Source: a virus (Duplodnaviria > Heunggongvirae > Uroviricota > Caudoviricetes). Taken from it: a stretch of DNA of 24,832 bases. Shown here one piece after another: positions 18,008-21,000 of the stretch (positions are counted from its first letter, which is position 1; each line of letters opens with the position of its first letter). The position numbers were made by a program. Location of the stretch: IMG/VR virus record IMGVR_UViG_2724679239_000003, one strand, 5' to 3'.

Positions 18008-21000
18008 GATTCATAATCAGGTTCGCTTCGGCGAGCTTTTTTTATATATGTTCGCCCGATGCATATCAACAAAATCTCCTGTGTGGGGAGTTTGTGGAGT
18101 GATAGGTGTGATTTTCTGTGTGGGTAGATTGCTTTTGGGAGCTGGTACATCCAAACAAAGGTGCGTCGCAATGTCCGGTATCTTGGGTAAAAAGTTTGTA
18201 AGGATGCAACTCTTTAAAAGCGGGAACTGACTCAGATGGTAATTAACGTGCCTTATTTGGTTATCTGTACGGATGGTAAGGTTGACCAGGAAGAACGAAA
18301 GATCCGATAAGTGATTGCCAGAGTATTACCACTTCTTGTGCGCTGGATTGTGACATTATTGTGGTCTGAGATAAAAATCGGTATAAGTAATGCTTGATTT
18401 TTTCATTGGATGTTTATTAAAAAGAGTGTCGTATGGTGAGCTTTCTTGCTCGTGGGACATCGGTGTAGGTATGTGGAGCTGTGACATCGATCGAACTCAC
18501 CGCGAGAGACACCATACATATATCCTAATGTTATTCCATATTATCTTCATTCCTGTTATTGCAGGCTGCGCATCGCGCAGCTTTTTTTTTATTCAGATTG
18601 CAAAGAGATGATTATTCTGTACCTTTTCTGCTCTGTTTTGTGTCGTTATCCGTGCTTACGGGAGAAGAATGAAGATTAGTAAATAAAGTATTATCCCTTG
18701 GCAATTGACGGTGTGATCGTGGTGGGGGAGGCACGAATCGCTCTACAGTATCGTAATAAAAAAACGCCAGTACAGAGGGTAATGGGAAAATAAATCTGCG
18801 CTGGCGGAGGAAGGCCCTCAGTGGAGAAGCTATATATTAATTTCTTTTTTATTTGATAGTAATAGTAATTGTCAAGCATATATTCCTATTGATTAGGATA
18901 TATTGTTATCAACCTTATACTGATTTATGTATACGCCATTGCGAATAATATCTATTTTATTGTAGATATAATCGTTATACATGGATTTTTATACAGATAA
19001 CCTGATAACAACTTTGATAATAAAATCAGTGTAATAAATAAGCCTCTACTCAATTGTTGATGCGATGAAGGGGGGGGCTGTGCTCTGAAAAAGTCAGTAT
19101 GTACGGGAACAGAGACTCTTCCTAAGTTTTAACCGGAAAATATTTCAATTGGATATGCTTATATTTGGTTGGTGTTGACGATTATGCGAAATCGTCAACA
19201 CCGGTCCGATAATAGGATACCTGGGGCATCAGTAATTAACTGGTGGCTTTTTATTGTTGTCAACTTCCGGATAACGGGAGACGGGGTATGTACCAGATGG
19301 AAAAAATCACAACAGGTGTGTCATACACCACGTCAGCGGTGGGGACGGGATACTGGTTACTGCAACTGCTGGACAAAGTCTCCCCATCCCAATGGGTGGC
19401 AATAGGCGTGCTGGGTAGTCTGGTGTTTGGCCTGCTGACGTACCTGACTAGACTGGCCCCCTGAATCTCCAGACAACCAGTATCACTTATTTAAGTGATA
19501 GTCTTAATACTAGTTTTTAGACTAGTCATTGGAGAGCAGATGATTGATGTCTTAGGACCGGAGAAACGCAGACGGCGTACTACACAGGAAAAGATCGCTA
19601 TTGTTCAGCAGAGTTTTGAACCGGGAATGACGGTCTCCCTTGTTGCCCGGCAACACGGTGTGGCAGCCAGCCAGTTATTTCTCTGGCGCAAGCAATACCA
19701 GGAGGGAAGTCTTACTGCTGTGGCCGCAGGAGAGCAGGTCGTTCCTGCCTCTGAACTTGCTGCTGCCATGAAGCAGATTAAAGAACTCCAGCGCCTGCTC
19801 GGAAAAAAAACGATGGAAAATGAACTCCTTAAAGAAGCCGTTGAATATGGGCGTGCAAAAAAGTGGATAGCGCACGCGCCCTTATTGCCCGGGGATGGGG
19901 AGTAAGCTTAGTCAGCCGTTGTCTCCGGGTGTCGCGTGCGCAGTTGCACGTAATTCTCAGACGAACCGATGACTGGAAAGATGGTCGCCGCAGCCGTCAC
20001 TCAGATGATACGGATGTGCTTCTCCGTATACACCATGTTATCGGAGAGCTGCCCACGTATGGTTATCGTCGGGTATGGGCGCTGCTTCGCAGACAGGCCG
20101 AACTTGATGGTATGCCTGCGATCAATGCCAAACGGGTTTACCGGATCATGCGCCAGAATGCGCTGTTGCTTGAGCGAAAAACCGCTGTACCGCCATCGAA
20201 ACGGGCACATACAGGCAAAGTGGCCGTGAAAGAAAGCAATCAACGATGGTGCTCTGACGGGTTCGAGTTCCGCTGTGATAACGGAGAAAAACTGCGAGTC
20301 ACGTTCGCGCTGGACTGCTGTGACCGTGAGGCACTGCACTGGGCAGTCACTACGGGCGGCTTCGACAGTGAAACAGTACAGGACGTAATGCTGGGAGCGG
20401 TGGAACGCCGCTTCGGCAACGAGCTTCCGGCGTCTCCAGTAGAGTGGCTGACGGATAATGGTTCATGCTACCGGGCTAATGAAACACTCCAGTTTGCCCG
20501 GATGTTGGGGCTTGAACCGAAGAACACGGCGGTGCGGAGTCCGGAGAGTAACGGCATAGCAGAGAGCTTCGTGAAAACGATAAAGCGTGACTACATCAGT
20601 GTCATGCCTAAACCAGACGGTTTAACGGCAGCAAAGAACCTTGCAGAGGCGTTCGAGCATTATAACGAATGGCATCCGCATAGTGCACTGGGTTATCGCT
20701 CGCCACGGGAATATCTACGGCAGCAGGCCAGTAATGGGTTAAGTGATAACAGGTGTCTGGAAATATAGGGGCAAATCCATATCCAGCAAAGTTCACCGTT
20801 ATGGCTAACCAATCAGCAAAGCGGTTGTAGTGTTCTTATTGTTCGCCATGGATTATCAGAATCTGGAGAACAGCAGTATTCAATGATACATATGCGCCCA
20901 AGGGATAGTAACGATTTCGTCGATGAGTTTACGCCAGCGCTTTACGCTAATACTCAGGAGATTTTGCTGGAGAGGGATATTCAGCGTACTCTTGCTAACA

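Follow-up and report, generated by a model that had tools for sequence, protein, structure and literature searches.

What occupies the toxin slot of a lambdoid prophage when no toxin gene is there? The 24,832-nt stretch of viral record IMGVR_UViG_2724679239_000003 (Caudoviricetes) analysed here, called the window throughout, contains the late region of a lambdoid prophage, as read from its gene order, and between its cluster of four tRNA genes and the start of its holin gene lies an AT-rich spacer of 1.2 kb (39.3% GC, against 44.6% for the window, and 25% at 18840-19069). The first-pass annotation of this DNA took the spacer for an unknown region with a strong terminator, a perfect palindrome and a run of eight G residues, at the place where Shiga toxin (Stx) phages carry stxAB. 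The placement is right: in prophage Sp5 of strain Sakai, stx2AB is followed by the same kind of convergent pair of small RNAs (sRNAs) that we describe here. The view of the spacer as uncharted did not hold, however, since it has the convergent sRNA arrangement already described for lambdoid prophages, the minus-strand partner of which had been overlooked. Our best explanation, to which we assign a probability of roughly 0.78, is that this is a decayed tciAB moron site that has kept a convergent sRNA gene pair. From the sequence comparisons it is highly probable that the plus-strand member is a homolog of PasD/STnc100-type sRNAs (EcOnc13/EcOnc27) and the minus-strand member a homolog of Esr41/EcOnc32-type sRNAs. 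The positions of all features are collected in Table 1.

The arrangement has a precedent in work on E. coli. In strain Sakai, prophages Sp3, Sp4, Sp5, Sp9, Sp10, Sp11, Sp15 and Sp17 have Hfq-bound sRNAs that converge on each other at the PR' moron site (Tree et al. 2014, PMC4104026), and Northern blots for Sp3 revealed EcOnc13, of about 187 nt, on the plus strand and EcOnc32, of about 112 nt, on the minus strand (PMC4104026). In Sakai Sp3 the matches to our two covariance models, R1 for the plus-strand and R2 for the minus-strand RNA, coincide with EcOnc13 and EcOnc32, the probe for EcOnc32 agreeing with the sequence; in Sakai Sp5, STnc100 comes after stx2AB and is convergent with AsxR. The plus-strand RNA of enteropathogenic E. 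coli (EPEC) was named PasD1/PasD2 by Pearl Mizrahi et al. 2021 (PMC8550237), and the partial PasD1 sequence in the supplement of that paper, which includes the seed UGUGAG and the terminator GGCUGCGCAUGGCGCG, matches E. coli loci that align with the window. These E. coli relatives of the plus-strand RNA are discrete, Hfq-dependent RNAs (PMC8550237, PMC4104026).

Homology, structure and location together place the plus-strand RNA in this family. Over 18340-18900 the window is a diverged homolog of the intergenic region from DUF3927 to holin, as aligned with O157 and other prophages (alignment A1), and blastn finds positions 18502-18592 at 75% identity over 92 nt in about 570 E. coli genomes, each time a few hundred bases upstream of a holin gene. 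R1, which was built from 26 non-redundant E. coli sequences (alignment A3) with the window's own lineage excluded, has a sole match in the 24.8-kb window, a full-length one at 18431-18589 on the plus strand (62.3 bits, E 2.4e-15), on a scale on which known members score 77-230 bits (76.6 for STnc100 of Sp5) and an unrelated terminator that fits the search pattern scores 19.4 bits. The 5' part of the RNA is a structured domain closed by helix P1, in which GUAUGGUG (18431-18438) pairs with CACCAUAC (18510-18517); eight of eight pairs form, and the window's lineage carries a compensatory double change from C-G to U-A. In another 5' helix, a change from U-G to C-G keeps the pairing in the lineage of locus L010. 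The RNA as a whole folds at -51.6 kcal/mol (z -3.2) with a PasD-like layout. At its 3' end stands the strong terminator reported at first pass, the full extent of which is 18563-18590: a stem of 8-9 pairs at 18563-18583, six of them G-C, with a 3-nt loop, and then T9 at 18582-18590, with a fold energy of -15.9 kcal/mol (z -3.4) that none of 200 shuffles equalled. A small transcript of 200-400 nt had been proposed upstream of this terminator; the terminator does mark an sRNA homolog, but one of about 160 nt. The RNA also lies where its relatives lie, on the late-transcription strand, after a Q-proximal moron and before the holin gene, in the order seen in Sakai Sp3 and Sp5, EPEC PP2 and PP4 and JLK-2012, and it is syntenic with its counterpart in Sakai Sp3. 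At the same spot in other prophages, Rfam detects STnc100 at 107-208 bits.

The most conserved block upstream of the RNA, TTTTT..T...TGTTTATTA.AAA, is invariant from 18399 onward in 19 of 19 aligned members (alignment A2), and TTGATT, which can be compared only in those rows of A2 that reach that far, reads TTGAYT there. The 5' end of PasD2 determined by RNA interaction by ligation and sequencing (RIL-seq; position 741157) is the G of GCATGGTG, 11 nt downstream of TATTAA; this G, belonging to GCAUGGUG, corresponds to window position 18431, where the window reads GUAUGGUG. We take 18393-18422 as the putative promoter of the plus-strand sRNA. On the 5' side of the terminator, a single-stranded U-rich stretch reads CCUGUUAUUGCA in the window, CCUUGUGAGUUCU in PasD and CCCUUUAUUUCC in STnc100-type members. 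The PasD seed UGUGAG is absent, the window having UGUUAU within CCUGUUAUUGCA, and the seed regions also differ between STnc100-type and PasD-type members. As far as these comparisons reach, the scaffold of the plus-strand RNA is conserved and its seed is not.

A further observation concerns the distribution of this family. The type strain of Escherichia albertii, NBRC 107761 (loci L143, L144 and L145), has at least four PasD/STnc100-family copies, including a tandem pair in L144 (R1 124.8 and 84.1 bits), and the 3' part of one variant is 80% identical to the window RNA; a 2026 survey of Pas RNAs reported PasA alone for E. albertii. Matches to the terminator pattern in Flavobacteriales and uncultured Gammaproteobacteria were discarded as coincidental terminators, having no other similarity to the window. 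Weak Rfam matches to CyaR, OmrA-B and suhB were likewise rejected as terminator-driven; at gathering thresholds, Rfam returned tRNAs only in the spacer.

The overlooked partner lies on the opposite strand. R2, built from four E. coli partner sequences (alignment A4), has its top match at 18758-18882 on the minus strand (34.9 bits, E 1.3e-5 with filters off; next match 14.5 bits), the same level as genuine Esr41 (34.7 bits). Reading along the minus strand, the single-stranded motif UUCUCCAC at 18828-18821 is followed by a hairpin, GAGG/CCUC, at 18819-18807 and by a terminator in which CGCCAGCGCAGA (18806-18795) pairs with UCUGUACUGGCG (18776-18765) before a U7 tract at 18764-18758; the RNA folds with z -3.2. 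The Rfam alignment of Esr41 has UUCUCCA, a hairpin and CGCCAGC...GCUGGCGUUUUUUUAU in common with it, and the small hairpin keeps its pairing through the change from GGGG/CCCC to GAGG/CCUC. This terminator (18765-18806 with its U7 tract) was one of several elements missed earlier, the others being the terminator at 18019-18046, a hairpin in the holin leader at 19227-19245 and gene remnants at the left end of the spacer. Two other identities for the minus-strand RNA were considered and rejected: AsxR/AgvB, as RF02703 and RF02702 give no match in the window at E up to 10 (AsxR in Sakai Sp5 scores 88 bits), and PasA/PasC, as PasA has CUCUCCAC inside its terminator loop and a different body.

Two side observations bear on this part of the locus. 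The promoter of E. coli EcOnc32-type sRNAs (L004, 3850-3960, minus strand) contains a Fur-box-like 19-mer, AATAATGATAATGTTTATA, that agrees with the consensus at 15 of 19 positions (2 of 1000 shuffles are as good), and the corresponding 19-mer of the window, GATAGTAATAGTAATTGTC at 18855-18873, agrees at 14 of 19 (33 of 1000 shuffles) and overlaps a 6-bp unit of variable copy number. Esr41 represses chuA, cirA and bfr (PMC5286369); it controls iron-uptake genes, and Fur is not mentioned in that paper. Between the two convergent terminators, a conserved Shine-Dalgarno-like GGGAGAA with an ATG (18661-18687) opens a mini-reading frame of five codons in the window (18670-18687) and of 17 codons in E. 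coli (MSINRYDIGYKKYHVLC; L004 in A1). The resemblance of 18661-18690 to the Northern probe of EcOnc22/23/24 raised the idea of a third sRNA here, which we rejected because EcOnc22/23/24 lie among tail genes.

The left end of the spacer records what once stood at the site. Its leader segment is part of a match at 17824-18193, the last two tRNA genes included, that has 79% identity over 378 nt to the interval from tRNA-Gly to tciA in phage JLK-2012, and the terminator within it, a match of the terminator scan, folds at -10.6 kcal/mol (z -3.3). When the TciA and TciB proteins of JLK-2012 and E. coli DUF3927 proteins were compared with the spacer by tblastn, TciA codons 1-8 were found at 18171-18194 and, after a frame change, a TciA internal repeat joined to the TciA C-terminus (18218-18334, interrupted by an in-frame stop at 18308-18310); then, at 18332-18376, come the final 15 codons of TciB/DUF3927, in a frame that stops at 18395-18397. 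By blastn the segment is 77% identical to the 3' end of the DUF3927 gene of locus L002. Because TciA and TciB/DUF3927 fragments are found here with a frame change and a stop, these roughly 230 bp are, by sequence, a pseudogene of the TerB-family/DUF3927 operon that is intact at the same place in other prophages; the window has no intact TciA or TciB reading frame and no Pfam match. The first-pass annotation had named alignment of the region to a degraded known gene as an outcome that would count against its reading. Such an alignment exists over the left 350 bp, which match the leader and remnants of tciA/tciB.

These findings lead us to the following model. A tciA-tciB moron would once have stood at the site and collapsed to a 230-bp pseudogene, and what is left would be a convergent sRNA gene pair of the sort typical of lambdoid prophages at this location. 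The plus-strand RNA, of about 160 nt, would start at the promoter-like element in the DUF3927 remnant and end at the strong terminator, and the minus-strand RNA, of about 75-85 nt (approximately 18840-18758), would end at a terminator of its own. In a lysogen, by analogy with the E. coli relatives, both RNAs would be made from their own promoters independently of Q, be bound by Hfq and base pair in trans. The plus-strand RNA would pair through the single-stranded CCUGUUAUUGCA just 5' of its terminator, which takes the place of the PasD seed, and the minus-strand RNA through UUCUCCAC, a conserved complement of Shine-Dalgarno sequences. Since its seed is different, the plus-strand RNA should have targets different from those of PasD. 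During lytic growth, Q-modified polymerase starting from PR' would pass all of the terminators and reach the lysis genes. Finally, an orphan segment of 340 bp appears to have been inserted, in the lineage of the window, between the promoter of the minus-strand sRNA and the holin leader.

This orphan insert carries the variable G-run and the palindrome. In E. coli just about 40 nt separate the promoter of the minus-strand sRNA from the holin leader. The insert has no match in 5426 E. coli genomes (E up to 1), 50,697 phages or about 125 E. coli prophage loci, and a search with the palindrome pattern through IMG/VR, 185,579 GTDB species representatives and JGI metagenomes returned the same prophage only. 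An origin as a miniature inverted-repeat transposable element or insertion sequence (IS) was rejected, the segment having no terminal inverted repeats, only a 7-bp TAGGATA microhomology at both ends and no homologs elsewhere. From 19223/19227 into the holin gene, identity is 94-95% in loci L001, L002, L004 and L148.

The palindrome is perfect over 13 bp, as had been reported, but its loop, ATGCGA, has six nucleotides instead of five, which extends it to 19171-19202. It is the longest perfect inverted repeat of the 24.8-kb window; an arm of 13 bp was reached in one of 2000 mononucleotide shuffles of the spacer, and the RNA form has a fold energy of -26.3 kcal/mol (z -6.2). Extended imperfectly, the palindrome would make an RNA stem of roughly 22 bp (19154-19219) in the late transcript. 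No U-tract follows the hairpin on either strand, as the first-pass annotation had observed, and for this reason it was rejected as a terminator. It was also rejected as a repeated operator: the window contains no further copies, and the half-site recurs only as chance-level near-matches. The palindrome is invariant in 12 of 12 copies, an uninformative result because the copies are 98-100% identical overall and represent one near-clonal lineage, and one that neither backs nor contradicts the first-pass reading as a protein-binding site. The palindrome ends 20 bp from 19223, where homology to the holin regions of E. coli and Stx phages resumes. It may serve as an operator or as a hairpin for processing or stability, or it may be a scar left by the insertion. 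The run of eight G residues is also present, at 19070-19077 and not at 19066-19075, and the length variation that had been proposed as a check among isolates is seen: the 12 near-identical copies, the window included, have G7 (2), G8 (7) or G9 (3), and the length differs even between the lineage mates L010 and L013. The T8, T7 and A7 runs in the same 5 kb are constant, and the G-run is the most polymorphic homopolymer of the locus. Some of the length calls could be sequencing or assembly errors; the pattern supports intrinsic slippage and is at worst assembly noise.

Several observations weigh against the explanation that we favor. The sequences behind R1 were gathered with a terminator pattern derived in part from the window itself. 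Against the Rfam model RF02076, the plus-strand RNA scores 12.9 bits (E 2.3 in a 521-nt search), below the gathering threshold of 47 bits, and it lacks both the two internal hairpins of STnc100 and the PasD seed. PasD1 (37.7 bits) and PasD2 (41.4 bits) also fall short, in agreement with a preprint (Zhu, Shabalina and Storz), so the cut-off of RF02076 defines strict STnc100 and not the wider family. Likewise, the minus-strand RNA reaches 18.6 bits (E 0.45) with the Rfam Esr41 model RF02676, for which the gathering threshold is 102 bits, and the EcOnc32 orthologs of O157 and EPEC miss that threshold too, at 32.3 bits. The 5' stem-loop of its relatives (GAUGNNNNNNNCAUC) is absent, R2 aligning a 5' hairpin only across a 37-nt insertion, and the distance from TTGACA to the -10-like hexamer is 30 nt (24 nt in certain alleles), whereas Esr41 has 17 nt. 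The difference between alleles stems from a tandem ATAGTA at 18856-18867, of which L008, L009, L010 and L013 have one unit only. Given this spacing, the minus-strand RNA may be poorly transcribed or silent. Moreover, the E. albertii copies show no extra conservation in the sRNA regions relative to the remaining spacer, with 8 of 38 variable columns falling in the 160-nt plus-strand RNA, and the whole region could be decaying, since the adjoining moron has become a pseudogene and an IS disrupts the holin gene in this strain.

The low Rfam scores, the lost hairpins and seed, the mis-spaced -35 and -10 elements with a 6-bp indel between them, the adjacent tciAB pseudogene, the IS2 in the holin gene and the lack of excess conservation of the sRNA segments among 12 copies would all fit a picture in which both genes are homologous but dead relics of a cryptic, lysis-defective prophage, no longer transcribed or regulating anything. 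We regard this as unlikely, although it deserves to be taken seriously: both terminators are intact and strong, P1 has undergone a compensatory double change and another 5' helix a pairing-preserving one in the L010 lineage, the promoter-like block is invariant across the family, the fold z-scores are about -3.2 for both RNAs, and the holin gene and lysis cassette are intact in most relatives, so the prophage lineage is not generally defunct. The terminators could instead serve mainly as insulators that, in the lysogen, keep transcription begun at tRNA or moron promoters, or arriving from the opposite side, away from the lysis genes, the released RNA being a by-product and the strong terminator the 3' end of the former tciAB operon. 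Three to four plus-strand terminators do stand in series before the holin gene (18019, 18563, 19227), and in intact loci STnc100 directly follows tciB/DUF3927 and so could be a 3' untranslated region. But the homologs in EPEC and enterohaemorrhagic E. coli are discrete, abundant, Hfq-bound RNAs whose 5' ends are defined and which act on many targets in trans (PMC8550237, PMC4104026), conservation and structure extend beyond the terminator to the RNA body, and the minus-strand terminator with its conserved upstream motif would be left unexplained; we therefore consider insulation a rather improbable main role. Of the convergent pair itself, homology, synteny with validated E. coli sRNAs, intact terminators and retained helices are established here, as are the absence of coding capacity and the G-run polymorphism of the surrounding spacer. 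For continued function of the plus-strand RNA we see about an even chance, and for that of the minus-strand RNA a lower one.

Two further alternatives assign a role to other parts of the spacer. It might encode one or more small proteins, namely from plus-strand open reading frames (ORFs) of 60 or 73 aa, a minus-strand ORF of 62 aa or a peptide read from 19064 in a frame that depends on the G-run. ORFs of 60-78 aa are indeed present, and RefSeq lists a 132-aa hypothetical protein on the minus strand over the homologous region of E. coli. However, ten spacer ORFs compared with Pfam and PHROGs gave no match for any, and in none of the nine NCBI loci with this spacer does a gene call fall between the genes for the TfpB-like protein and the holin, results that bear out the earlier description of it as non-coding. 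The 60-aa ORF consists of the tciA leader plus 20 codons in the remnant frame, only the first eight of which match TciA; the 73-aa ORF extends across the sRNA, terminator included; the G-run ORF lacks a ribosome-binding site and spans 7, 19 or 22 codons depending on the allele; and the E. coli 132-aa frame meets stops in the window and frameshifts in several E. coli genomes. With no domain match, no gene calls and broken frames, we reject the small-protein hypotheses, to which we give almost no credence. Alternatively, the orphan insert could be a functional regulatory module, in which the G-run is a phase switch and the palindrome an operator or an RNase III-type processing hairpin, controlling the minus-strand sRNA or the lysis genes. 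In its favor, the G-run is the most variable of its kind in the locus, the palindrome exceeds chance expectation and folds into a very stable hairpin that no U-tract follows, and the segment sits between the sRNA promoter and the holin leader. Yet a run of eight G residues is intrinsically prone to slippage, and assembly errors may account for some of the length calls; of the two properties looked for in a phase-variable locus, the run varies in length but is neither part of a reading frame nor a promoter spacer, no ORF of at least 25 aa covering it on either strand and no promoter-like site or recognisable -35/-10 pair flanking it by scan or manual inspection; the palindrome half-site recurs in the window no more than chance allows; and the searches turned up homologs in a single near-clonal lineage only, which leaves no evolutionary sign of constraint on the insert. 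Such a module seems to us improbable, and its most specific form, a lineage-specific control module in which G7-9 switches an unrecognised promoter or transcript and the stem of about 22 bp is an operator or RNase III-type site upstream of the holin leader, a little more so. If that form were true, the Esr41-like sRNA or the lysis cassette would be phase-variable or separately regulated in E. albertii.

The RefSeq protein just mentioned merits a note of its own. WP_012578864.1 (132 aa, minus strand; L148 2767-3165 = ECs_0817, L004 3458-3856, L017 1801-2199) spans EcOnc13/PasD and EcOnc32. Because stops interrupt its frame in the window and frameshifts do so in L005 and L016, this coding sequence is probably spurious.

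Table 1. Features of the spacer and its surroundings in the 24,832-nt window.
Feature	Position	Strand	Basis and remarks
LpxR-like gene	14512-15471	minus	
Q	ends 16633		terminator next
Membrane protein gene, 237 aa	16841-17554		Pfam TfpB
Four tRNA genes, anticodons CAT, TCT, TGT, TCC	17698-18007	plus	ARAGORN; Rfam tRNA 53-72 bits; downstream of Q and TfpB-like gene
Leader of former tciA (terB-like) moron	18008-18170	plus	includes intrinsic terminator 18019-18046 right after tRNA-Gly
Collapsed tciA-tciB (TerB family/DUF3927) pseudogene	18171-18397	plus	tblastn, blastn, alignment A1
Promoter-like element	18393-18422	plus	TTGATT 18394-18399, TATTAA 18415-18420; within 3' end of DUF3927 remnant
Probable diverged PasD/STnc100-family sRNA homolog, about 160 nt	18431-18590	plus	covariance model R1, blastn, synteny, fold
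Inter-terminator interval	18591-18757		partly alignable with E. coli prophages (A1)
Probable Esr41/EcOnc32-like sRNA homolog	about 18758-18840, 5' end uncertain	minus	covariance model R2, Rfam, fold, A1
Putative promoter region of minus-strand sRNA	18834-18875	minus	TTGACA 18875-18870, -10-like TAATAT 18839-18834; compared with Esr41 (L149) and EcOnc32 (L004)
AT-rich orphan insert, 33.5% GC	18880-19222		extra relative to E. coli intergenic region
G8 homopolymer, length-variable	19070-19077		
Perfect palindrome, 13 + 6 + 13	19171-19202		GGTGTTGACGATT 19171-19183, ATGCGA loop, AATCGTCAACACC 19190-19202
Conserved holin leader	19223-19287	plus	terminator-like hairpin 19227-19245, then GCTTTTTATT (terminator scan)
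Class II holin gene S, 5' part	19288-19448	plus	IS2-type insertion after 19448

The window belongs to a prophage of Sakai-Sp3 type (lpxR, Q, membrane protein, tRNAs, ..., holin) living in E. albertii, and its order of lpxR, Q and TfpB-like gene matches that of Sakai Sp3, EPEC PP2 and EPEC PP4. Relatives were collected by an exact-protein look-up with the TfpB-like membrane protein, which gave ten NCBI loci; an interval of 1.73 kb is common to nine of them at 98.3-100% identity, and L011 (BBWA01000002.1) is 100% identical to the window, IS2 insertion included. CP043258.1 is the chromosome of E. albertii RM10507 and CP030783.2 that of E. albertii 2012EL-1823B (PMC10673567). The prophage, minus the IS, is also present in an IMG/VR contig and a metagenome contig. 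Apart from its last 68 bp, the holin leader, the spacer was not found at 85% identity or more in 5426 complete E. coli genomes or 50,697 phage records, a result that pointed to a host other than E. coli.

The IS2-type element occupies 19449-20780 (orfA + orfB 19495-20768) and cuts the holin gene after codon 54, so the prophage copy in the window should be lysis-defective. The gene is intact in L003, L140 and most NCBI relatives and has the same IS2 interruption in L011; L013 carries a different IS3-family insertion, located after the holin gene. A recombination breakpoint is visible at the end of the tRNA cluster in L014 (5160-5470), which matches the window over the membrane protein gene and the four tRNA genes, departs exactly at the 3' end of tRNA-Gly (window 18008) and continues with an unrelated 290-bp leader and a different lysis cassette. 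The first tRNA gene, 17698-17773, is called tRNA-Met (CAT) by ARAGORN and, except for one base, is identical to Sakai ileZ2, a tRNA-Ile by annotation (anticodon CAT); on account of this near-identity it is probably a lysidine-modified tRNA-Ile2. Further upstream, a strong terminator at 16679-16706, 45 nt past the Q stop codon, is probably tR', which, as in Stx phages and other lambdoid phages, would yield a short leader RNA from PR'. Another pair of homopolymers that vary in length, A6 then G6 at 15738-15749, lies in the divergent lpxR/ylcG-Q intergenic region and reads A6-7 and G6-8 in relatives. Elsewhere in the window, Rfam gives gathering-level matches at 21292-21490, downstream of the IS2 element, to IS009 (179 bits) and at 5616-5674 to the lambda cIII thermoregulator element (88.5 bits).

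If the explanation that we favor is correct, the toxin slot of Stx phages is not empty in this prophage: a convergent pair of regulatory RNA genes has been kept there after the protein cargo decayed. The architecture is known, and its members here are new, strongly diverged, below Rfam thresholds and different in seed, which makes them a modest extension of known families. The E. albertii copies have diverged so far that Rfam and BLAST-based surveys miss both, and they widen the known sequence space of the PasD/STnc100 and Esr41-like families. The combination of a retained scaffold and a new pairing region suggests that these prophage RNAs diversify by seed swapping on a conserved scaffold. 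PasD interacts with transcripts of the locus of enterocyte effacement (LEE) and of bfp in EPEC, and E. albertii is an attaching-and-effacing pathogen. By analogy, a variant with a new seed could rewire virulence regulation in this species.

Compared with the tciA-tciB moron of JLK-2012, the site retains the leader, the context of the start codon, protein fragments and the place after the tRNA-Gly gene, whereas no more than about 230 of some 600 bp are left, the frame changes, an internal fusion and a stop codon are present, and the gene is not functional. The minus-strand RNA is reminiscent of AsxR (RF02703) and AgvB (RF02702) in being a short minus-strand sRNA at the moron site, convergent with an STnc100-type RNA and combining a variable 5' end with a conserved 3' part, but it has no sequence similarity to them, and the conserved 3' region of AsxR/AgvB, of about 42 nt, contains the terminator GCCCGAACCCACUCGGGC, where the window has CGCCAGC...GCUGGCG. 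It is closer to Esr41 (RF02676, from the SpLE1 island) and EcOnc32 (Sakai Sp3). EcOnc32, like the window RNA, is the minus-strand partner convergent with a PasD-type RNA, and all have UUCUCCA(C/U), a 4-bp hairpin, the terminator CGCCAGC...GCUGGCG with U7, and TTGACA upstream with a TA-rich -10 region; the window differs in lacking the 5' hairpin and in a terminator loop of 18 nt on a stem with a mismatch and a wobble pair.

For the plus-strand RNA, the nearest Rfam family is STnc100 (RF02076), as in EcOnc27 downstream of stx2B in Sakai Sp5. The two agree in position after the moron coding sequence, in orientation, in facing a convergent minus-strand sRNA, in the P1 helix (GCAUGGUG/CACCAUGC) and in a GAAYUCACCG core, and they differ in that the window has neither the CCCCC/GGGGG nor the CCGGG/CCCGG hairpin and has a terminator of PasD type and not of Sp5 STnc100 type. 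From PasD1/PasD2 of EPEC E2348/69 (EcOnc13 in Sakai Sp3), the window RNA differs in its 5' domain, which has 87 nt against 99 nt and a largely different sequence, and in what precedes it, four tRNA genes and the tciAB remnant in place of an intact DUF3927 gene. With them it has in common the slot and strand, after Q, a membrane protein gene and DUF3927, before the holin gene and near lpxR; 75% identity across the 92 nt at the 3' end; the promoter-like block; the 5' end G(C/U)AUGGUG; the P1 helix; the U-rich single-stranded 3' region; and the terminator GGCUGCGCAU(G/C)GCGC(G/A)GC(C/U)U8-9.

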